The notes beneath the pieces were generated by a model that saw only the letters and a program-made list of their open reading frames with translations, was not told the origin of the DNA and searched no databases. The translations under genes were made by a program, and so were the position numbers. 37,063 bases of DNA from Escherichia phage T7, in the sequence record OL964749.1; one strand, written 5' to 3'. Positions 1 to 37,063 of the stretch are shown here, one piece after another. Numbering within the stretch: position 1 is the first letter of the stretch; each line of letters starts with the position of its first letter.

Positions 1-150
1 CTCACAGTGTACGGACCTAAAGTTCCCCCATAGGGGTACCTAAAGCCCAGCCAATCACCTAAAGTCAATGACCTTGAGGGTTCCCTAAGGGTTGGGGATG
101 ACCCTTGGGTTTGTCTTTGGGTGTTACCTTGAGTGTCTCTCTGTGTCCCT
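1..150. repeat. Left terminal direct repeat (TR) of a T7-type genome; identical copy at the right end
   Basis: Bases 1-150 recur exactly at 36914-37063; sequence matches the T7 terminal redundancy (CTCACAGTGTACGGACCTAAAG...). Confidence 0.95.
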
Positions 151-345: not shown

Positions 346-366
346 ATAAAGTGATAACCTTTAATC

Positions 367-431
367 ATTGTCTTTATTAATACAACTCATTGTCTTTATT
401 AATATAATCATTGTCTTTATTAATACAACTC
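367..431 (+). repeat. Tandem triplication of a 21-22 bp unit (ATTGTCTTTATTAATACAACTC) spanning the upstream half of promoter phiOL
   Basis: Copies at 367-388, 389-409 (variant AATATAATC) and 410-431; only the third is followed by CACTATAAGGAGAG. Confidence 0.85.
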
Positions 432-443
432 ACTATAAGGAGA
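421..443 (+). promoter_or_regulatory. T7 RNA polymerase promoter phiOL (left-end replication/packaging-associated promoter)
   Basis: TAATACAACTCACTATAAGGAGAG matches the T7 promoter consensus over -17 to +6 except two positions; predicted +1 near 438. Confidence 0.8.
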
Positions 444-531: not shown

Positions 532-642
532 TCGAGAGGGACACGGCGAATAGCCATCCCAATCGACACCGGGGTCAACCGGGCGCACAGTGCCTTCTAG
601 GTGACTTAAGCGCACCACGGCACATAAGGTGAAACAAAACGG

Positions 643-853: not shown

Positions 854-1549
854 ATGGCTATGTCTAACATGACTTACAACAACGTTTTCGACCACGCTTA
901 CGAAATGCTGAAAGAAAACATCCGTTATGATGACATCCGTGACACTGATGACCTGCACGATGCTATTCACATGGCTGCCGATAATGCAGTTCCGCACTAC
1001 TACGCTGACATCTTTAGCGTAATGGCAAGTGAGGGCATTGACCTTGAGTTCGAAGACTCTGATCTGATGCCTGACACCAAGGACGTAATCCGCATCCTGC
1101 AAGCGCGTATCTATGAGCAATTAACGATTGACCTCTGGGAAGACGCAGAAGACTTGCTCAATGAATACTTGGAGGAAGTCGAGGAAGTCGCACGACAGAA
1201 AGAAATTGACCGCGCTAAGGCCCGTAAAGAACGTCACGAGGGGCGCTTAGAGGCACGCAGATTCAAACGTCGCAACCGCAAGGCACGTAAAGCACACAAA
1301 GCTAAGCGCGAAAGAATGCTTGCTGCGTGGCGATGGGCTGAACGTCAAGAACGGCGTAACCATGAGGTAGCTGTAGATGTACTAGGAAGAACCAATAACG
1401 CTATGCTCCGGGTCAACATGTCCTCTGGGGACTTTAAGGCGCTTGAGGAACGAATCGCGCTGCACTGGCGTAATGCTGACCGGATGGCTATCGCTAATGG
1501 TCTTACGCTCAACATTGATAAGCAACTTGACGCAATGTTAATGGGCTGA
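854..1549 (+). CDS. In-frame fusion: Ocr (gene 0.3 anti-restriction DNA mimic, residues 1 to about 111) joined to the C-terminal roughly 120 aa of gp0.7 (host transcription shut-off domain); kinase domain absent
   Basis: 231-aa ORF; N-terminus [19 protein letters not shown]...[10 protein letters not shown] equals T7 Ocr, then a basic Arg/Lys-rich tail ending 71 bp before gene 1, as gene 0.7 does in T7. Confidence 0.85.
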
Positions 1550-1552
1550 TAG

Positions 1553-1612
1553 TCTTATCTTACAGGTCATCTGCGGGTGGCCTGAATAGGTACGATTTAC
1601 TAACTGGAAGAG
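1553..1612 (+). promoter_or_regulatory. RNase III site R1 upstream of gene 1
   Basis: Hairpin CAGGTCATCTGCGGGTGGCCTG between the fusion ORF stop and the gene 1 start. Confidence 0.6.
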
Positions 1613-1619
1613 GCACTAA

Positions 1620-4271
1620 ATGAACACGATTAACATCGCTAAGAACGACTTCTCTGACATCGAACTGGCTGCTATCCCGTTCAACACTCTGGCTGACCAT
1701 TACGGTGAGCGTTTAGCTCGCGAACAGTTGGCCCTTGAGCATGAGTCTTACGAGATGGGTGAAGCACGCTTCCGCAAGATGTTTGAGCGTCAACTTAAAG
1801 CTGGTGAGGTTGCGGATAACGCTGCCGCCAAGCCTCTCATCACTACCCTACTCCCTAAGATGATTGCACGCATCAACGACTGGTTTGAGGAAGTGAAAGC
1901 TAAGCGCGGCAAGCGCCAGACAGCCTTCCAGTTCCTGCAAGAAATCAAGCCGGAAGCCGTAGCGTACATCACCATTAAGACCACTCTGGCTTGCCTAACC
2001 AGTGCTGACAATACAACCGTTCAGGCTGTAGCAAGCGCAATCGGTCGGGCCATTGAGGACGAGGCTCGCTTCGGTCGTATCCGTGACCTTGAAGCTAAGC
2101 ACTTCAAGAAAAACGTTGAGGAACAACTCAACAAGCGCGTAGGGCACGTCTACAAGAAAGCATTTATGCGAGTTGTCGAGGCTGACATGCTCTCTAAGGG
2201 TCTACTCGGTGGCGAGGCGTGGTCTTCGTGGCATAAGGAAGACTCTATTCATGTAGGAGTACGCTGCATCGAGATGCTCATTGAGTCAACCGGAATGGTT
2301 AGCTTACACCGCCAAAATGCTGGCGTAGTAGGTCAAGACTCTGAGACTATCGAACTCGCACCTGAATACGCTGAGGCTATCGCAACCCGTGCAGGTGCGC
2401 TGGCTGGCATCTCTCCGATGTTCCAACCTTGCGTAGTTCCTCCTAAGCCGTGGACTGGCATTACTGGTGGTGGCTATTGGGCTAACGGTCGTCGTCCTCT
2501 GGCGCTGGTGCGTACTCACAGTAAGAAAGCACTGATGCGCTACGAAGACGTTTACATGCCTGAGGTGTACAAAGCGATTAACATTGCGCAAAACACCGCA
2601 TGGAAAATCAACAAGAAAGTCCTAGCGGTCGCCAACGTAATCACCAAGTGGAAGCATTGTCCGGTCGAGGACATCCCTGCGATTGAGCATGAAGAACTCC
2701 CGATGAAACCGGAAGACATCGACATGAATCCTGAGGCTCTCACCGCGTGGAAACGTGCTGCCGCTGCTGTGTACCGCAAGGACAAGGCTCGCAAGTCTCG
2801 CCGTATCAGCCTTGAGTTCATGCTTGAGCAAGCCAATAAGTTTGCTAACCATAAGGCCATCTGGTTCCCTTACAACATGGACTGGCGCGGTCGTGTTTAC
2901 GCTGTGTCAATGTTCAACCCGCAAGGTAACGATATGACCAAAGGACTGCTTACGCTGGCGAAAGGTAAACCAATCGGTAAGGAAGGTTACTACTGGCTGA
3001 AAATCCACGGTGCAAACTGTGCGGGTGTCGATAAGGTTCCGTTCCCTGATCGCATCAAGTTCATTGAGGAAAACCACGAGAACATCATGGCTTGCGCTAA
3101 GTCTCCACTGGAGAACACTTGGTGGGCTGAGCAAGATTCTCCGTTCTGCTTCCTTGCGTTCTGCTTTGAGTACGCTGGGGTACAGCACCACGGCCTGAGC
3201 TATAACTGCTCCCTTCCGCTGGCGTTTGACGGGTCTTGCTCTGGCATCCAGCACTTCTCCGCGATGCTCCGAGATGAGGTAGGTGGTCGCGCGGTTAACT
3301 TGCTTCCTAGTGAAACCGTTCAGGACATCTACGGGATTGTTGCTAAGAAAGTCAACGAGATTCTACAAGCAGACGCAATCAATGGGACCGATAACGAAGT
3401 AGTTACCGTGACCGATGAGAACACTGGTGAAATCTCTGAGAAAGTCAAGCTGGGCACTAAGGCACTGGCTGGTCAATGGCTGGCTTACGGTGTTACTCGC
3501 AGTGTGACTAAGCGTTCAGTCATGACGCTGGCTTACGGGTCCAAAGAGTTCGGCTTCCGTCAACAAGTGCTGGAAGATACCATTCAGCCAGCTATTGATT
3601 CCGGCAAGGGTCTGATGTTCACTCAGCCGAATCAGGCTGCTGGATACATGGCTAAGCTGATTTGGGAATCTGTGAGCGTGACGGTGGTAGCTGCGGTTGA
3701 AGCAATGAACTGGCTTAAGTCTGCTGCTAAGCTGCTGGCTGCTGAGGTCAAAGATAAGAAGACTGGAGAGATTCTTCGCAAGCGTTGCGCTGTGCATTGG
3801 GTAACTCCTGATGGTTTCCCTGTGTGGCAGGAATACAAGAAGCCTATTCAGACGCGCTTGAACCTGATGTTCCTCGGTCAGTTCCGCTTACAGCCTACCA
3901 TTAACACCAACAAAGATAGCGAGATTGATGCACACAAACAGGAGTCTGGTATCGCTCCTAACTTTGTACACAGCCAAGACGGTAGCCACCTTCGTAAGAC
4001 TGTAGTGTGGGCACACGAGAAGTACGGAATCGAATCTTTTGCACTGATTCACGACTCCTTCGGTACCATTCCGGCTGACGCTGCGAACCTGTTCAAAGCA
4101 GTGCGCGAAACTATGGTTGACACATATGAGTCTTGTGATGTACTGGCTGATTTCTACGACCAGTTCGCTGACCAGTTGCACGAGTCTCAATTGGACAAAA
4201 TGCCAGCACTTCCGGCTAAAGGTAACTTGAACCTCCGTGACATCTTAGAGTCGGACTTCGCGTTCGCGTAA
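1620..4271 (+). CDS. T7 RNA polymerase (gene 1), single-subunit DNA-dependent RNA polymerase
   Basis: 883-aa ORF, MNTINIAKNDFSDIELAAIPFNTLADHYG...ESDFAFA, essentially identical to T7 RNAP. Confidence 0.98.
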   Translation: MNTINIAKNDFSDIELAAIPFNTLADHYGERLAREQLALEHESYEMGEARFRKMFERQLKAGEVADNAAAKPLITTLLPKMIARINDWFEEVKAKRGKRQTAFQFLQEIKPEAVAYITIKTTLACLTSADNTTVQAVASAIGRAIEDEARFGRIRDLEAKHFKKNVEEQLNKRVGHVYKKAFMRVVEADMLSKGLLGGEAWSSWHKEDSIHVGVRCIEMLIESTGMVSLHRQNAGVVGQDSETIELAPEYAEAIATRAGALAGISPMFQPCVVPPKPWTGITGGGYWANGRRPLALVRTHSKKALMRYEDVYMPEVYKAINIAQNTAWKINKKVLAVANVITKWKHCPVEDIPAIEHEELPMKPEDIDMNPEALTAWKRAAAAVYRKDKARKSRRISLEFMLEQANKFANHKAIWFPYNMDWRGRVYAVSMFNPQGNDMTKGLLTLAKGKPIGKEGYYWLKIHGANCAGVDKVPFPDRIKFIEENHENIMACAKSPLENTWWAEQDSPFCFLAFCFEYAGVQHHGLSYNCSLPLAFDGSCSGIQHFSAMLRDEVGGRAVNLLPSETVQDIYGIVAKKVNEILQADAINGTDNEVVTVTDENTGEISEKVKLGTKALAGQWLAYGVTRSVTKRSVMTLAYGSKEFGFRQQVLEDTIQPAIDSGKGLMFTQPNQAAGYMAKLIWESVSVTVVAAVEAMNWLKSAAKLLAAEVKDKKTGEILRKRCAVHWVTPDGFPVWQEYKKPIQTRLNLMFLGQFRLQPTINTNKDSEIDAHKQESGIAPNFVHSQDGSHLRKTVVWAHEKYGIESFALIHDSFGTIPADAANLFKAVRETMVDTYESCDVLADFYDQFADQLHESQLDKMPALPAKGNLNLRDILESDFAFA

Positions 4272-4279
4272 CGCCAAAT

Positions 4280-4302
4280 CAATACGACTCACTATAGAGG
4301 GA
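4280..4302 (+). promoter_or_regulatory. T7 promoter phi1.1A
   Basis: CAATACGACTCACTATAGAGGGA; +1 near 4297. Confidence 0.85.
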
Positions 4303-4354
4303 CAAACTCAAGGTCATTCGCAAGAGTGGCCTTTATGATTGACCTTCTTCCGGT

Positions 4355-4377
4355 TAATACGACTCACTATAGGAGAA
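4355..4377 (+). promoter_or_regulatory. T7 promoter phi1.1B
   Basis: TAATACGACTCACTATAGGAGAA; +1 near 4372. Confidence 0.9.
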
Positions 4378-4455
4378 CCTTAAGGTTTAACTTTAAGACC
4401 CTTAAGTGTTAATTAGAGATTTAAATTAAAGAATTAATAAGAGAGGACTTTAAGT

Positions 4456-4584
4456 ATGCGTAACTTCGAAAAGATGACCAAACGTTCTAACCGTAATGCT
4501 CGTGACTTCGAGGCAACCAAAGGTCGCAAGTTGAATAAGACTAAGCGTGACCGCTCTCACAAGCGTAGCTGGGAGGGTCAGTAA
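4456..4584 (+). CDS. Gene 1.1 protein (42 aa, basic, function unknown)
   Basis: ORF MRNFEKMTKRSNRNARDFEATKGRKLNKTKRDRSHKRSWEGQ with upstream GAGAGGA Shine-Dalgarno; position conserved with T7 gene 1.1. Confidence 0.8.
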   Translation: MRNFEKMTKRSNRNARDFEATKGRKLNKTKRDRSHKRSWEGQ

Positions 4585-4585
4585 G

Positions 4586-4843
4586 ATGGGACGTTTATAT
4601 AGTGGTAATCTGGCAGCATTCAAGGCAGCAACAAACAAGCTGTTCCAGTTAGACTTAGCTGTCATTTATGATGACTGGTATGATGCCTATACAAGAAAAG
4701 ATTGCATACGGTTACGTATTGAGGACAGGAGTGGAAACCTGATTGATACTAGCACCTTCTACCACCACGACGAGGACGTTCTGTTCAATATGTGTACTGA
4801 TTGGTTGAACCATATGTATGACCAGTTGAAGGACTGGAAGTAA
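4586..4843 (+). CDS. Gene 1.2 protein (inhibitor of host dGTPase Dgt), 85 aa
   Basis: MGRLYSGNLAAFKAATNKLFQLDLAVIYDDWYDAYTRKDCIRLRIED...KDWK; matches T7 gp1.2. The ORF-track start at 4547 is an upstream extension. Confidence 0.85.
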   Translation: MGRLYSGNLAAFKAATNKLFQLDLAVIYDDWYDAYTRKDCIRLRIEDRSGNLIDTSTFYHHDEDVLFNMCTDWLNHMYDQLKDWK

Positions 4844-4863
4844 TACGACTCAGTATAGGGACA
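4841..4863 (+). promoter_or_regulatory. T7 promoter phi1.3
   Basis: TAATACGACTCAGTATAGGGACA; +1 near 4858. Confidence 0.85.
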
Positions 4864-4865
4864 AT

Positions 4866-4905
4866 GCTTAAGGTCGCTCTCTAGGAGTGGCCTTAGTCAT
4901 TTAAC
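4866..4905 (+). promoter_or_regulatory. RNase III site R1.3
   Basis: Hairpin TTAAGGTCGCTCTCTAGGAGTGGCCTTAG immediately downstream of phi1.3. Confidence 0.55.
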
Positions 4906-4923
4906 CAATAGGAGATAAACATT

Positions 4924-6003
4924 ATGATGAACATTAAGACTAACCCGTTTAAAGCCGTGTCTTTCGTAGAGTCTGCCATTAAGAAGGCTCTGGATAACGC
5001 TGGGTATCTTATCGCTGAAATCAAGTACGATGGTGTACGCGGGAACATCTGCGTAGACAATACTGCTAACAGTTACTGGCTCTCTCGTGTATCTAAAACG
5101 ATTCCGGCACTGGAGCACTTAAACGGGTTTGATGTTCGCTGGAAGCGTCTACTGAACGATGACCGTTGCTTCTACAAAGATGGCTTTATGCTTGATGGGG
5201 AACTCATGGTCAAGGGCGTAGACTTTAACACAGGGTCCGGCCTACTGCGTACCAAATGGACTGACACGAAGAACCAAGAGTTCCATGAAGAGTTATTCGT
5301 TGAACCAATCCGTAAGAAAGATAAAGTTCCCTTTAAGCTGCACACTGGACACCTTCACATAAAACTGTACGCTATCCTCCCGCTGCACATCGTGGAGTCT
5401 GGAGAAGACTGTGATGTCATGACGTTGCTCATGCAGGAACACGTTAAGAACATGCTGCCTCTGCTACAGGAATACTTCCCTGAAATCGAATGGCAAGCGG
5501 CTGAATCTTACGAGGTCTACGATATGGTAGAACTACATCAACTGTACGAGCAGAAGCGAGCAGAAGGCCATGAGGGTCTCATTGTGAAAGACCCGATGTG
5601 TATCTATAAGCGCGGTAAGAAATCTGGCTGGTGGAAAATGAAACCTGAGAACGAAGCTGACGGTATCATTCAGGGTCTGGTATGGGGTACAAAAGGTCTG
5701 GCTAATGAAGGTAAAGTGATTGGTTTTGAGGTGCTTCTTGAGAGTGGTCGTTTAGTTAACGCCACGAATATCTCTCGCGCCTTAATGGATGAGTTCACTG
5801 AGACAGTAAAAGAGGCCACCCTAAGTCAATGGGGATTCTTTAGCCCATACGGTATTGGCGACAACGATGCTTGTACTATTAACCCTTACGATGGCTGGGC
5901 GTGTCAAATTAGCTACATGGAGGAAACACCTGATGGCTCTTTGCGGCACCCATCGTTCGTAATGTTCCGTGGCACCGAGGACAACCCTCAAGAGAAAATG
6001 TAA
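4924..6003 (+). CDS. ATP-dependent DNA ligase (gene 1.3)
   Basis: 359-aa ORF MMNIKTNPFKAVSFVESAIKK... with the adenylation motif KYDGVRG; matches T7 ligase. Confidence 0.95.
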   Translation: MMNIKTNPFKAVSFVESAIKKALDNAGYLIAEIKYDGVRGNICVDNTANSYWLSRVSKTIPALEHLNGFDVRWKRLLNDDRCFYKDGFMLDGELMVKGVDFNTGSGLLRTKWTDTKNQEFHEELFVEPIRKKDKVPFKLHTGHLHIKLYAILPLHIVESGEDCDVMTLLMQEHVKNMLPLLQEYFPEIEWQAAESYEVYDMVELHQLYEQKRAEGHEGLIVKDPMCIYKRGKKSGWWKMKPENEADGIIQGLVWGTKGLANEGKVIGFEVLLESGRLVNATNISRALMDEFTETVKEATLSQWGFFSPYGIGDNDACTINPYDGWACQISYMEETPDGSLRHPSFVMFRGTEDNPQEKM

Positions 6004-6010
6004 TCACACT

Positions 6011-6038
6011 GGCTCACCTTCGGGTGGGCCTTTCTGCG
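6011..6038 (+). terminator. Early transcription terminator TE (rho-independent, for host RNA polymerase)
   Basis: GC-rich hairpin GGCTCACCTTCGGGTGGGCC followed by TTTCTGCGTTT directly after the ligase stop. Confidence 0.9.
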
Positions 6039-6053
6039 TTTATAAGGAGACAC

Positions 6054-6076
6054 TTTTACGACTCACTAAAGGAGGT
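6054..6076 (+). promoter_or_regulatory. T7 promoter phi1.5 with non-consensus -16/-15 (TTTTACGACTCACTAAAGGAGGT)
   Basis: Matches the class II promoter from -14 to +6; positions -16 and -15 are TT instead of AA, consistent with a deletion junction at the promoter edge. Confidence 0.7.
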
Positions 6077-6083
6077 ACACACC

Positions 6084-6173
6084 ATGATGTACTTAATGCC
6101 ATTACTCATCGTCATTGTAGGATGCCTTGCGCTCCACTGTAGCGATGATGATATGCCAGATGGTCACGCTTAA
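6084..6173 (+). CDS. Gene 1.5 protein (29 aa)
   Basis: ORF MMYLMPLLIVIVGCLALHCSDDDMPDGHA preceded by AAGGAGGT; matches T7 gene 1.5. Confidence 0.7.
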   Translation: MMYLMPLLIVIVGCLALHCSDDDMPDGHA

Positions 6174-6193
6174 TACGACTCACTAAAGGAGAC
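6171..6193 (+). promoter_or_regulatory. T7 promoter phi1.6
   Basis: TAATACGACTCACTAAAGGAGAC; +1 near 6188. Confidence 0.9.
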
Positions 6194-6198
6194 ACTAT

Positions 6199-6465
6199 AT
6201 GTTTCGACTTCATTACAACAAAAGCGTTAAGAATTTCACGGTTCGCCGTGCTGACCGTTCAATCGTATGTGCGAGCGAGCGCCGAGCTAAGATACCTCTT
6301 ATTGGTAACACAGTTCCTTTGGCACCTAGCGTCCACATCATTATCACCCGTTGTGACTTTGAGAAAGCAATAGACAAGAAACGTCCGGTTCTTAGTGTGG
6401 CAGTGACCCGCTTCCCGTTCGTCCGTCTGTTACTCAAACGAATCAAGGAGGTGTTACACCTGTAA
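6199..6465 (+). CDS. Gene 1.6 protein (88 aa here; C-terminal residues may be altered by the adjacent deletion)
   Basis: [32 protein letters not shown]...; position and N-terminus match T7 gene 1.6. Confidence 0.8.
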
Positions 6466-6481
6466 CAAAGGAGCTAACGAT

Positions 6482-6941
6482 ATGACCGAACGTGAACAAG
6501 AGATGATCATTAAGTTGATAGACAATAATGAAGGTCGCCCAGATGATTTGAATGGCTGCGGTATTCTCTGCTCCAATGTCCCTTGCCACCTCTGCCCCGC
6601 AAATAACGATCAAAAGATAACCTTAGGTGAAATCCGAGCGATGGACCCACGTAAACCACATCTGAATAAACCTGAGGTAACTCCTACAGATGACCAGCCT
6701 TCCGCTGAGACAATCGAAGGTGTCACTAAGCCTTCCCACTACATGCTGTTTGACGACATTGAGGCTATCGAAGTGATTGCTCGTTCAATGACCGTTGAGC
6801 AGTTCAAGGGATACTGCTTCGGTAACATCTTAAAGTACAGACTACGTGCTGGTAAGAAGTCAGAGTTAGCGTACTTAGAGAAAGACCTAGCGAAAGCAGA
6901 CTTCTATAAAGAACTCTTTGAGAAACATAAGGATAAATGTT

Positions 6942-6949
<8 letters not shown>
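6482..6949 (+). CDS. Gene 1.7 protein (nucleotide kinase), N-terminally truncated: 155 aa against 196 aa in reference T7
   Basis: ORF MTEREQEMIIKLIDNNEGRPDDLNGCGILCSN...KDKCYA equals the C-terminal 155 aa of gp1.7; AAGGAG lies 8 nt upstream of this internal Met. Confidence 0.8.
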
Positions 6950-7282
<333 letters not shown>

Positions 7283-7285
<3 letters not shown>

Positions 7286-7306
7286 TACGACTCACTATTA
7301 GGGAAG
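7283..7306 (+). promoter_or_regulatory. T7 promoter phi2.5
   Basis: TAATACGACTCACTATTAGGGAAGA. Confidence 0.85.
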
Positions 7307-7350
7307 ACTCCCTCTGAGAAACCAAACGAAACCTAAAGGAGATTAACATT

Positions 7351-8049
7351 ATGGCTAAGAAGATTTTCACCTCTGCGCTGGGTACCGCTGAACCTTACGC
7401 TTACATCGCCAAGCCGGACTACGGCAACGAAGAGCGTGGCTTTGGGAACCCTCGTGGTGTCTATAAAGTTGACCTGACTATTCCCAACAAAGACCCGCGC
7501 TGCCAGCGTATGGTCGATGAAATCGTGAAGTGTCACGAAGAGGCTTATGCTGCTGCCGTTGAGGAATACGAAGCTAATCCACCTGCTGTAGCTCGTGGTA
7601 AGAAACCGCTGAAACCGTATGAGGGTGACATGCCGTTCTTCGATAACGGTGACGGTACGACTACCTTTAAGTTCAAATGCTACGCGTCTTTCCAAGACAA
7701 GAAGACCAAAGAGACCAAGCACATCAATCTTGTTGTGGTTGACTCAAAAGGTAAGAAGATGGAAGACGTTCCGATTATCGGTGGTGGCTCTAAGCTGAAA
7801 GTTAAATATTCTCTGGTTCCATACAAGTGGAACACTGCTGTAGGTGCGAGCGTTAAGCTGCAACTGGAATCCGTGATGCTGGTCGAACTGGCTACCTTTG
7901 GTGGCGGTGAAGACGATTGGGCTGACGAAGTTGAAGAGAACGGCTATGTTGCCTCTGGTTCTGCCAAAGCGAGCAAACCACGCGACGAAGAAAGCTGGGA
8001 CGAAGACGACGAAGAGTCCGAGGAAGCAGACGAAGACGGAGACTTCTAA
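7351..8049 (+). CDS. Single-stranded DNA-binding protein gp2.5
   Basis: 232-aa ORF MAKKIFTSALGTAEPYAYIAKPDYGNEERGFGNPRGVYKVDLTIPN... with acidic C-terminal tail ending ...EADEDGDF. Confidence 0.95.
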   Translation: MAKKIFTSALGTAEPYAYIAKPDYGNEERGFGNPRGVYKVDLTIPNKDPRCQRMVDEIVKCHEEAYAAAVEEYEANPPAVARGKKPLKPYEGDMPFFDNGDGTTTFKFKCYASFQDKKTKETKHINLVVVDSKGKKMEDVPIIGGGSKLKVKYSLVPYKWNTAVGASVKLQLESVMLVELATFGGGEDDWADEVEENGYVASGSAKASKPRDEESWDEDDEESEEADEDGDF

Positions 8050-8469
8050 GTGGAACTGCGGGAGAAAATCCTTGAGCGAATCAAGGTGACTTCCTCTGGG
8101 TGTTGGGAGTGGCAGGGCGCTACGAACAATAAAGGGTACGGGCAGGTGTGGTGCAGCAATACCGGAAAGGTTGTCTACTGTCATCGCGTAATGTCTAATG
8201 CTCCGAAAGGTTCTACCGTCCTGCACTCCTGTGATAATCCATTATGTTGTAACCCTGAACACCTATCCATAGGAACTCCAAAAGAGAACTCCACTGACAT
8301 GGTAAATAAGGGTCGCTCACACAAGGGGTATAAACTTTCAGACGAAGACGTAATGGCAATCATGGAGTCCAGCGAGTCCAATGTATCCTTAGCTCGCACC
8401 TATGGTGTCTCCCAACAGACTATTTGTGATATACGCAAATGGAGGCGACATGGCAGGTTACGGCGCTAA
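8050..8469 (+). CDS. Gene 2.8 protein (139 aa), HNH-type endonuclease-like
   Basis: ORF starting at GTG directly after the 2.5 stop; contains CHRVMSNAPKGSTVLHSCDNPLCCNPEHL, an HNH-like Cys/His motif. Confidence 0.7.
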   Translation: MELREKILERIKVTSSGCWEWQGATNNKGYGQVWCSNTGKVVYCHRVMSNAPKGSTVLHSCDNPLCCNPEHLSIGTPKENSTDMVNKGRSHKGYKLSDEDVMAIMESSESNVSLARTYGVSQQTICDIRKWRRHGRLRR

Positions 8470-9355: not shown

Positions 9356-9377
9356 TAATTGAACTCACTAAAGGGAG

Positions 9378-9378
<1 letters not shown>
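9356..9378 (+). promoter_or_regulatory. T7 promoter phi3.8
   Basis: TAATTGAACTCACTAAAGGGAGA; +1 near 9373. Confidence 0.85.
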
Positions 9379-11239
<1,861 letters not shown>

Positions 11240-11242
<3 letters not shown>

Positions 11243-11262
11243 TACGACTCACTAAAGGCCAC
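11240..11262 (+). promoter_or_regulatory. T7 promoter phi4.3 with altered initially transcribed sequence (GGCCAC instead of GGAGAC)
   Basis: TAATACGACTCACTAAAGG then CCACACAG; consensus through +2, consistent with a deletion junction at +3. Confidence 0.75.
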
Positions 11263-12068: not shown

Positions 12069-14183
12069 ATGATCGTTTCTGACATCGAAGCTAACGCCCT
12101 CTTAGAGAGCGTCACTAAGTTCCACTGCGGGGTTATCTACGACTACTCCACCGCTGAGTACGTAAGCTACCGTCCGAGTGACTTCGGTGCGTATCTGGAT
12201 GCGCTGGAAGCCGAGGTTGCACGAGGCGGTCTTATTGTGTTCCACAACGGTCACAAGTATGACGTTCCTGCATTGACCAAACTGGCAAAGTTGCAATTGA
12301 ACCGAGAGTTCCACCTTCCTCGTGAGAACTGTATTGACACCCTTGTGTTGTCACGTTTGATTCATTCCAACCTCAAGGACACCGATATGGGTCTTCTGCG
12401 TTCCGGCAAGTTGCCCGGAAAACGCTTTGGGTCTCACGCTTTGGAGGCGTGGGGTTATCGCTTAGGCGAGATGAAGGGTGAATACAAAGACGACTTTAAG
12501 CGTATGCTTGAAGAGCAGGGTGAAGAATACGTTGACGGAATGGAGTGGTGGAACTTCAACGAAGAGATGATGGACTATAACGTTCAGGACGTTGTGGTAA
12601 CTAAAGCTCTCCTTGAGAAGCTACTCTCTGACAAACATTACTTCCCTCCTGAGATTGACTTTACGGACGTAGGATACACTACGTTCTGGTCAGAATCCCT
12701 TGAGGCCGTTGACATTGAACATCGTGCTGCATGGCTGCTCGCTAAACAAGAGCGCAACGGGTTCCCGTTTGACACAAAAGCAATCGAAGAGTTGTACGTA
12801 GAGTTAGCTGCTCGCCGCTCTGAGTTGCTCCGTAAATTGACCGAAACGTTCGGCTCGTGGTATCAGCCTAAAGGTGGCACTGAGATGTTCTGCCATCCGC
12901 GAACAGGTAAGCCACTACCTAAATACCCTCGCATTAAGACACCTAAAGTTGGTGGTATCTTTAAGAAGCCTAAGAACAAGGCACAGCGAGAAGGCCGTGA
13001 GCCTTGCGAACTTGATACCCGCGAGTACGTTGCTGGTGCTCCTTACACCCCAGTTGAACATGTTGTGTTTAACCCTTCGTCTCGTGACCACATTCAGAAG
13101 AAACTCCAAGAGGCTGGGTGGGTCCCGACCAAGTACACCGATAAGGGTGCTCCTGTGGTGGACGATGAGGTACTCGAAGGAGTACGTGTAGATGACCCTG
13201 AGAAGCAAGCCGCTATCGACCTCATTAAAGAGTACTTGATGATTCAGAAGCGAATCGGACAGTCTGCTGAGGGAGACAAAGCATGGCTTCGTTATGTTGC
13301 TGAGGATGGTAAGATTCATGGTTCTGTTAACCCTAATGGAGCAGTTACGGGTCGTGCGACCCATGCGTTCCCAAACCTTGCGCAAATTCCGGGTGTACGT
13401 TCTCCTTATGGAGAGCAGTGTCGCGCTGCTTTTGGCGCTGAGCACCATTTGGATGGGATAACTGGTAAGCCTTGGGTTCAGGCTGGCATCGACGCATCCG
13501 GTCTTGAGCTACGCTGCTTGGCTCACTTCATGGCTCGCTTTGATAACGGCGAGTACGCTCACGAGATTCTTAACGGCGACATCCACACTAAGAACCAGAT
13601 AGCTGCTGAACTACCTACCCGAGATAACGCTAAGACGTTCATCTATGGGTTCCTCTATGGTGCTGGTGATGAGAAGATTGGACAGATTGTTGGTGCTGGT
13701 AAAGAGCGCGGTAAGGAACTCAAGAAGAAATTCCTTGAGAACACCCCCGCGATTGCAGCACTCCGCGAGTCTATCCAACAGACACTTGTCGAGTCCTCTC
13801 AATGGGTAGCTGGTGAGCAACAAGTCAAGTGGAAACGCCGCTGGATTAAAGGTCTGGATGGTCGTAAGGTACACGTTCGTAGTCCTCACGCTGCCTTGAA
13901 TACCCTACTGCAATCTGCTGGTGCTCTCATCTGCAAACTGTGGATTATCAAGACCGAAGAGATGCTCGTAGAGAAAGGCTTGAAGCATGGCTGGGATGGG
14001 GACTTTGCGTACATGGCATGGGTACATGATGAAATCCAAGTAGGCTGCCGTACCGAAGAGATTGCTCAGGTGGTCATTGAGACCGCACAAGAAGCGATGC
14101 GCTGGGTTGGAGACCACTGGAACTTCCGGTGTCTTCTGGATACCGAAGGTAAGATGGGTCCTAATTGGGCGATTTGCCACTGA
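12069..14183 (+). CDS. DNA polymerase gp5 (family A, thioredoxin-binding, with 3'-5' exonuclease)
   Basis: 704-aa [39 protein letters not shown]... with exonuclease and polymerase motifs; matches T7 gp5. Confidence 0.98.
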
Positions 14184-14198
14184 TACAGGAGGCTACTC

Positions 14199-14402
14199 AT
14201 GAACGAAAGACACTTAACAGGTGCTGCTTCTGAAATGCTAGTAGCCTACAAATTTACCAAAGCTGGGTACACTGTCTATTACCCTATGCTGACTCAGAGT
14301 AAAGAGGACTTGGTTGTATGTAAGGATGGTAAATTTAGTAAGGTTCAGGTTAAAACATTGTGGTTGACGAAGATGTGCTTATTTTCACATGGGACGAAGT
14401 AA
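14199..14402 (+). CDS. Gene 5.3 (HNH endonuclease-like), frameshift-truncated to 67 aa against 118 aa in reference
   Basis: N-terminus MNERHLTGAASEMLVAYKFTKAGYTVYYPMLTQSKEDLVVCKDGKFSKVQVKT matches gp5.3, then a short out-of-frame tail; about 100 bp missing. Confidence 0.7.
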   Translation: MNERHLTGAASEMLVAYKFTKAGYTVYYPMLTQSKEDLVVCKDGKFSKVQVKTLWLTKMCLFSHGTK

Positions 14403-16479: not shown

Positions 16480-16746
16480 ATGTGTTTCTCACCGAAAATT
16501 AAAACTCCGAAGATGGATACCAATCAGATTCGAGCCGTTGAGCCAGCGCCTCTGACCCAAGAAGTGTCAAGCGTGGAGTTCGGTGGGTCTTCTGATGAGA
16601 CGGATACCGAGGGCACCGAAGTGTCTGGACGCAAAGGCCTCAAGGTCGAACGTGATGATTCCGTAGCGAAGTCTAAAGCCAGCGGCAATGGCTCCGCTCG
16701 TATGAAATCTTCCATCCGTAAGTCCGCATTTGGAGGTAAGAAGTGA
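16480..16746 (+). CDS. Gene 6.7 protein (88 aa, virion protein)
   Basis: ORF MCFSPKIKTPKMDTNQIRAVEPAPLTQEVSSVEFGG...; the track start at 16459 is an upstream extension. Confidence 0.8.
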   Translation: MCFSPKIKTPKMDTNQIRAVEPAPLTQEVSSVEFGGSSDETDTEGTEVSGRKGLKVERDDSVAKSKASGNGSARMKSSIRKSAFGGKK

Positions 16747-36912: not shown

Positions 36913-37063
36913 TCTCACAGTGTACGGACCTAAAGTTCCCCCATAGGGGTACCTAAAGCCCAGCCAATCACCTAAAGTCAATGACCTTGAGGGTTCCCTA
37001 AGGGTTGGGGATGACCCTTGGGTTTGTCTTTGGGTGTTACCTTGAGTGTCTCTCTGTGTCCCT
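36913..37063. repeat. Right terminal direct repeat (TR)
   Basis: 36914-37063 is identical to 1-150; the preceding T at 36913 corresponds to the first TR base missing from the window start. Confidence 0.95.

Follow-up and report, generated by a model that had tools for sequence, protein, structure and literature searches.

Natural relatives of phage T7 that lack gene 1.4 are known. In phiA1122 (NC_004777) and T3 (NC_003298), the promoter phi1.5 and gene 1.5 come directly after the early terminator TE. The terminator tail of phiA1122 is joined directly to an intact TAATACGACTCAC (GCGTTTAATACGAC), the ribosome-binding site of gene 1.4 is also absent, and the junction reads CTGCGTTTAATACGACTCACTAAAGGAGGT (GCGTTTAATACGACTCAC). 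Compared with phiA1122, T7 carries an extra module of 169 bp (reference 7594-7762), which comprises this ribosome-binding site and the ORF. Non-essential DNA of the early region is also lost in viable phages through Studier-type spontaneous deletions, which occur between short direct repeats and ignore gene boundaries.

Deletions in T7 have also been made on purpose. In the CRISPR/Cas9 iterative genome-reduction method (CiPGr), 200-nt cassettes combine a Cas9 spacer with a 50+50-bp repair template and remove either an entire annotated gene (cassette-gene) or 100 bp (cassette-100) (Yuan, Shi, Jiang, Ma, Nucleic Acids Res 2022, PMC9825161). According to the same paper, clones were sampled every 10 transfers as large or small plaques, likely regulatory elements were not targeted, and point mutations rose linearly with the number of transfers (PMC9825161). 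The two libraries were kept apart, with populations pooled only within a library, and undesigned losses of fragments such as gp0.3-0.6 were reported (PMC9825161).

Here, we analyzed a T7 genome of 37,063 bp (OL964749.1; the whole stretch is referred to as the window, and positions are those of the window unless the reference, NC_001604, is named). Like phiA1122 and T3, it passes from TE to phi1.5 and gene 1.5 without gene 1.4 and, as in the Studier-type deletions, the DNA lost is non-essential and belongs to the early region. The comparisons below leave us highly confident that the window is a genome-reduced T7 mutant generated by CiPGr, and a sibling of the clones T7_1t1 and T7_1t3.

Extent and layout of the gene 1.4 deletion

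The window is ~99.8% identical to T7, carries eleven deletions relative to NC_001604 and is 7.2% smaller than the reference. A first-pass annotation, made from the sequence alone, had proposed that gene 1.4 was absent through an ORF-precise deletion of about 156 bp. BLAST alignment of the whole window places one block at window 1173-6056 (reference 2724-7607) and the next at window 6057-6455 (reference 7764-8162), so that reference 7608-7763, exactly 156 bp, is missing. As gene 1.4 is annotated in NC_001604 at 7608-7763, the deletion runs from its ATG to its TAA, with 0 nt of overlap between the edges. In the near-wild-type clone T7_10L, the laboratory's own annotation puts this CDS at 7609-7764. 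Thus, around reference 7550-7800 the alignment gave the length and the endpoints that had been claimed. The product lost with the deletion is gp1.4, a hydrophobic protein of 51 amino acids, and neither protein nor DNA searches of the whole window revealed gene 1.4 at another place.

At the locus, AAGGAGACACTTT (6044-6056) is followed directly by TACGACTCACTAAAGGAGGT (6057-6076). The features that surround the junction are listed in Table 1. The TE segment matches reference 7561-7593 exactly, with TE annotated at reference 7588, and its T-rich tail reads CTTTCTGCGTTTA (6030-6042). A simple terminator and sigma-70 scan of window 5850-6350 gave no calls, its rule for T runs being too stringent to detect TE. 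Of the deleted gene, the ribosome-binding site and leader, TAAGGAGACACTTT, have been left behind, with no start codon at a working distance after them, and the last three T of this leader now form positions -17 to -15 of phi1.5. The only gene between phi1.5 and the next promoter is gene 1.5. An in-frame GTG at window 6024 that would extend gene 1.5 was rejected as a mechanical ORF, as it begins inside the TE hairpin and lacks a ribosome-binding site. No point mutations that could represent compensation were present near the junction (window 5538-6327, that is, ~500 bp upstream and ~270 bp downstream).

Table 1 Features of the gene 1.4 deletion locus (window coordinates)
Feature	Position	Strand	Details
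Gene 1.3 (DNA ligase), intact, upstream neighbour	4924..6003	+	359-aa ORF; aligns to reference 6475-7554
Putative 50+50-bp repair-template footprint	6007..6106	+	Reference 7558-7607 joined to 7764-7813, one exact 100-mer
Early terminator TE hairpin, GGCTCACC-TTCG-GGTGGGCC	6011..6030	+	8-bp GC-rich stem in RNA fold; unchanged from T7
Orphan ribosome-binding site/leader of deleted gene 1.4, TAAGGAGACACTTT	6043..6056	+	14 nt
Clipped T7 RNA polymerase promoter phi1.5, -17..+6 = TTTTACGACTCACTAAAGGAGGT	6054..6076	+	+1 at 6071; promoter scan and 17 reference promoters
Deletion junction	6056..6057	.	Blunt; 0 nt microhomology between edges
Gene 1.5 (29 codons), intact	6084..6173	+	ORF list and alignment; "protein 1.5" in the annotation of sibling clones
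Promoter phi1.6, intact, TAATACGACTCACTAAAGGAGAC	6171..6193	+	+1 at 6188; its TAA is the gene 1.5 stop codon

Origin of the deletion

A 40-nt probe centred on the junction, which is unable to seed on wild-type T7, matched 63 GenBank phage records and no others. All of them are MZ3752xx or OL9647xx entries labelled "Mutant Escherichia phage T7 clone". Since the main text of the CiPGr paper names neither gene 1.4 nor accession numbers, we infer that these 63 records belong to that study from the naming of the clones, the genome sizes and the design of the deletions (PMC9825161). Clone names such as T7_10L, T7_30L and so on to T7_290S fit its sampling of large and small plaques every 10 transfers. 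The junction is absent in T7_10L and present from T7_30L (transfer 30) through T7_290S (transfer 290).

The records nearest to the window are OL964748 (T7_1t1, 37,088 bp, 7.1% smaller than the reference) and OL964750 (T7_1t3, 37,455 bp), and the window is identical to neither. It shares its gene 1.4 junction with T7_1t1, T7_1t3 and T7_30L (MZ375237), and has in common with its CiPGr siblings the 0.3-0.7, 1.7, 3.8, 4.3, 4.7 and right-end deletions as well as many point mutations. In contrast to T7_1t1, the window keeps the phi1.1A-phi1.1B interval and carries a 100-bp deletion in gene 5.3; in contrast to T7_1t3, it lacks gene 7.7. The window also has private substitutions, including changes at phi10 +2 and phi13 +6.

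The published method offers a route to this allele. Cas9 would cut inside gene 1.4, which fully contains eleven SpCas9 NGG protospacers, and a 100-bp template carried on a plasmid, joining the 50 bp upstream of the ATG to the 50 bp downstream of the TAA, would serve to repair the break. The outcome would be a scar-free removal of the annotated CDS. Design from CDS coordinates would account for two features of the locus, the orphan ribosome-binding site that was left and the loss of the TAA that gene 1.4 shared with phi1.5. As likely regulatory elements were not targeted according to the paper, the clipping of phi1.5 would represent an undocumented side effect rather than a stated design. The main text makes no mention of promoter clipping and uses the word "promoter" solely for the one that drives the cassette's sgRNA (PMC9825161).

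The other deletions in the window bear on whether the loss of gene 1.4 could have arisen spontaneously during T7 propagation, either between short direct repeats or as a CRISPR escape. T7 readily sheds non-essential DNA, the CiPGr paper itself reports undesigned fragment losses (PMC9825161), and three irregular deletions in the same window lie between direct repeats of 9-13 bp. The first removes 104 bp, including the A2 promoter region, at the 9-bp repeat GTCAACCGG (window 574-582); the second removes 1480 bp at the 13-bp repeat AGGAAGTCGAGGA (window 1173-1185) and fuses 0.3 to 0.7; the third removes 277 bp at the 9-bp repeat AAAGGGAGA (window 9370-9378), from the phi3.8 start region to inside gene 3.8. 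These three look like spontaneous or CRISPR-escape events and not like designed ones. In contrast, the endpoints of the gene 1.4 deletion show no direct repeat (0 nt against 9, 13 and 9 nt) and coincide precisely with the ATG and the TAA. Endpoints on exact ORF boundaries without a repeat are not a chance pattern, and the identical junction recurs in 63 clones of an experiment designed to make such deletions. Thus, we regard a spontaneous origin as very improbable.

The regular deletions resemble designed ones. Five are exactly 100 bp long, of which four are blunt (reference 8163-8262, 14172-14271, 16642-16741 and 39565-39664) and one, at about reference 13343-13442, has an ambiguity of 3 nt. 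The gene 7.7 deletion runs from the GTG start codon (19848) to 24 nt before gene 8 and spares the gene 8 ribosome-binding site. The first-pass annotation had judged the gene 1.4 excision to be designed rather than spontaneous. This judgement is supported by a junction confined to 63 engineered clones, by the cassette-gene method and by the presence of 100-bp-type deletions in the window.

By type, the junctions at 6056/6057 (gene 1.4) and 17451/17452 (gene 7.7) are of the whole-gene type, and those at 6455/6456, 11987/11988, 14357/14358 and 36799/36800 are of the 100-bp type. Because the paper pooled populations within a library only, the occurrence of both types in one genome suggests that cassette pools or phage stocks became cross-contaminated and that recombination followed. 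At 6455/6456, the deletion of reference 8163-8262 takes the gene 1.6 stop and 97 nt from the start of gene 1.7, giving gene 1.6 the new C-terminus ...KEVLHL, and gene 1.7 could restart at an internal ATG (window 6482, 155 aa). The 100-bp deletion in gene 4.3 (window 11240-11262) begins at phi4.3 +3, where the initial transcript now reads GGCCAC instead of GGAGAC, and also takes the ribosome-binding site of gene 4.3 together with its start codon. Gene 7.3 carries an in-frame deletion of 12 bp at about window 17195 (288 vs 300 nt), which is also found in T7_1t1 and T7_1t3 and not in the reference or T7_10L.

That the window might instead be a natural relative without gene 1.4 is suggested by the direct passage from TE to phi1.5 in both phages, and by the presence of gp1.4 homologues in only 46 phage records, mostly of T7 itself. 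However, the flanks of the junction are identical to T7, and the natural allele has a different junction, which reads GCGTTTAATACGACTCAC, keeps the TAA and has no orphan ribosome-binding site. In the window, the terminator tail does not abut an intact promoter; the 14-nt leader TAAGGAGACACTTT is kept and the TAA is lost. A kept leader with a lost TAA is the mark of a deletion drawn on CDS coordinates and not of a natural module boundary. The exact 100-bp deletions in the window, and nearest records that are labelled as mutants, also speak against a natural relative, and the comparison of the junctions rules this origin out.

An artefact of assembly or sequencing, with reads collapsed across the region, would be another way to lose gene 1.4 from a record. 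The assembly is not flawless throughout, as there are small indels relative to the reference at the left end and in the terminal repeat. Nevertheless, there is no collapse-prone repeat at reference 7608/7763, 63 genomes deposited as separate records share the junction, and the 156 bp removed correspond to exactly one ORF. We therefore consider an artefact to be extremely improbable. The deletion of gene 1.4 is a known, published laboratory construct, and no natural oddity.

As for the rest of the sequence, ~39 substitutions separate the window from NC_001604; G>T and C>A are over-represented (17/39), and many of the substitutions are common to sibling clones. The terminal repeat, 160 bp long in the reference, measures 150-151 bp here (window 1-150 and 36913-37063), contains small indels and is identical to that of T7_1t1; this shortening may be real or an effect of the assembly.

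The clipped phi1.5 promoter

In NC_001604, the first base transcribed from phi1.5 is at 7778 and gene 1.4 ends at 7763; therefore, positions -17 to -15 of the promoter (7761-7763) are the TAA stop codon of gene 1.4, and direct reading of the reference agrees. The earlier description had already placed the stop codon at the first three bases of phi1.5, and had noted that TT was left at -16 and -15. Indeed, both positions change from A to T, and the T at -17 is kept by coincidence, being supplied by CACTTT. Positions -17 to -13 now read TTTTA instead of TAATA, and -22 to -18 change from ACTGG to GACAC. Positions -14 to +6 are unchanged; in window 6059-6076, which equals native phi1.5, the specificity-loop core at -12 to -5 (CGACTCAC), the unwinding region and the +1 G are intact.

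Published data on single changes allow an estimate of the consequences. In the part of file S2 of Komura et al. 2018 (PMC5937735) covered here, where each value stems from one barcode and from the consensus promoter in vitro, not from phi1.5 in vivo, the wild-type promoter has a mean of 169 ± 19 (100%), the -16T variant gives 114.5 and the -15T variant 115.7 (each ~68% of wild type), and the -2A variant, with the base found in native phi1.5, gives 161 and 138 (~88%). There, TTTTGCGACTCACTAAAGG, which combines TTTT with -13G, gives 19.6 (~12% of wild type), and replacing A by T at -16 or at -15 is one of the least harmful substitutions in the data. This part of the file contains neither the exact -16T/-15T double variant nor matched-background partners of its three TTTT-containing variants. 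Nor do these values include phi1.5 itself (-2A, +3 AGGT) with both changes, and we found no in vivo data. According to a preprint, the polymerase touches positions -13 to -17 with its AT-rich recognition loop, and a change from TAATA to TATAT had little effect while a GC-rich replacement was damaging (Padmanabhan & Miller 2019 preprint). This one preprint suggests that in -17 to -13 base composition weighs more than the exact sequence.

Based on these values, clipped phi1.5 is probably weakened ~2-4-fold, to between a quarter and half of its native activity, and not inactivated; the figure is an extrapolation, because the exact double variant is not among the available values. If the deletion were engineered but clipped phi1.5 virtually inactive, transcription of gene 1.5 and of the genes downstream would depend entirely on read-through and phi1.6. 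This would fit the ~12% left in vitro by TTTT plus -13G, in the part of file S2 covered, and the base usage of the 17 native T7 promoters, where T at -15 does not occur and T at -16 is seen in phi4.7 only. Against this, each single change leaves ~68% of activity in the same partial data set, the TTTTA element consists entirely of A and T, thereby preserving the composition that is reported to matter, and the -12 to -5 core and the start region are intact. Consequently, we find a dead promoter unlikely.

For the weakened promoter that we favour, the effect on the phage would be small, because only gene 1.5 partly depends on phi1.5 and intact phi1.6 follows, 117 bp downstream. T7 RNA polymerase that starts at phi1.1A, phi1.1B and phi1.3 also crosses the phi1.5 region. 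The first-pass annotation was correct in all details that could be checked. It was made unaware that the construct had been published. The promoter is not lost, the change being a mild A-to-T swap in its AT-rich edge.

Other promoters of the window also differ from the reference. A tandem triplication at window 362-432, with ~43 extra bp and a unit of 21-22 bp (TAATCATTGTCTTTATTAATACAA), overlaps the upstream half of phiOL; it is found in T7_1t1 and is absent from NC_001604 and T7_10L. At window 20140, phi10 carries G to T at +2 (TATAGTGAGA), and at window 24514, phi13 carries A to C at +6; neither change is in the reference, T7_10L, T7_1t1 or T7_1t3. As phi10 drives the major capsid gene, its +2 change could alter fitness.

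Late clones and implications

The later clones show what happens when phi1.5 and phi1.6 are merged. In T7_260L, 270S and 290S (MZ375283, MZ375286 and MZ375290), gene 1.5 has also been lost, as the repeats of phi1.5 and phi1.6 recombined (117 bp). These clones retain one hybrid promoter, TTTTACGACTCACTAAAGGAGAC, which keeps the clipped TTT edge and is the sole promoter between TE and gene 1.6. Therefore, phages with the clipped version alone in this interval are still viable.

One could ask whether serial passage selected for clipped phi1.5, or for the loss of gp1.4, instead of either being neutral collateral. With weaker firing just after TE, or once a small membrane protein is gone, growth might be faster on a host bearing Cas9 and the plasmid. 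Such an advantage would explain the presence of the junction by transfer 30 and in 63 clones, and its retention in the only promoter between TE and gene 1.6. We consider this improbable.

For the biology of T7, the finding means little: the genome comes from a laboratory construct that has been deposited, and gene 1.4 had previously been counted among the non-essential genes. The deletion of gene 1.4 is already known, and the predicted promoter defect is mild. In genome scans, the window should be marked as engineered to keep its other peculiarities from being taken for natural variation. The lesson is for genome designers. The TAA at -17 to -15 is the stop codon of the upstream gene in 7 of the 17 T7 promoters (genes 1.2, 1.4, 1.5, 2, 4.2, 8 and 16), and since promoter and stop codon share it, a deletion drawn purely on CDS coordinates clips the promoter. 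The arrangement of phiA1122, in which the ribosome-binding site is removed and the promoter is whole, is the cleaner design.
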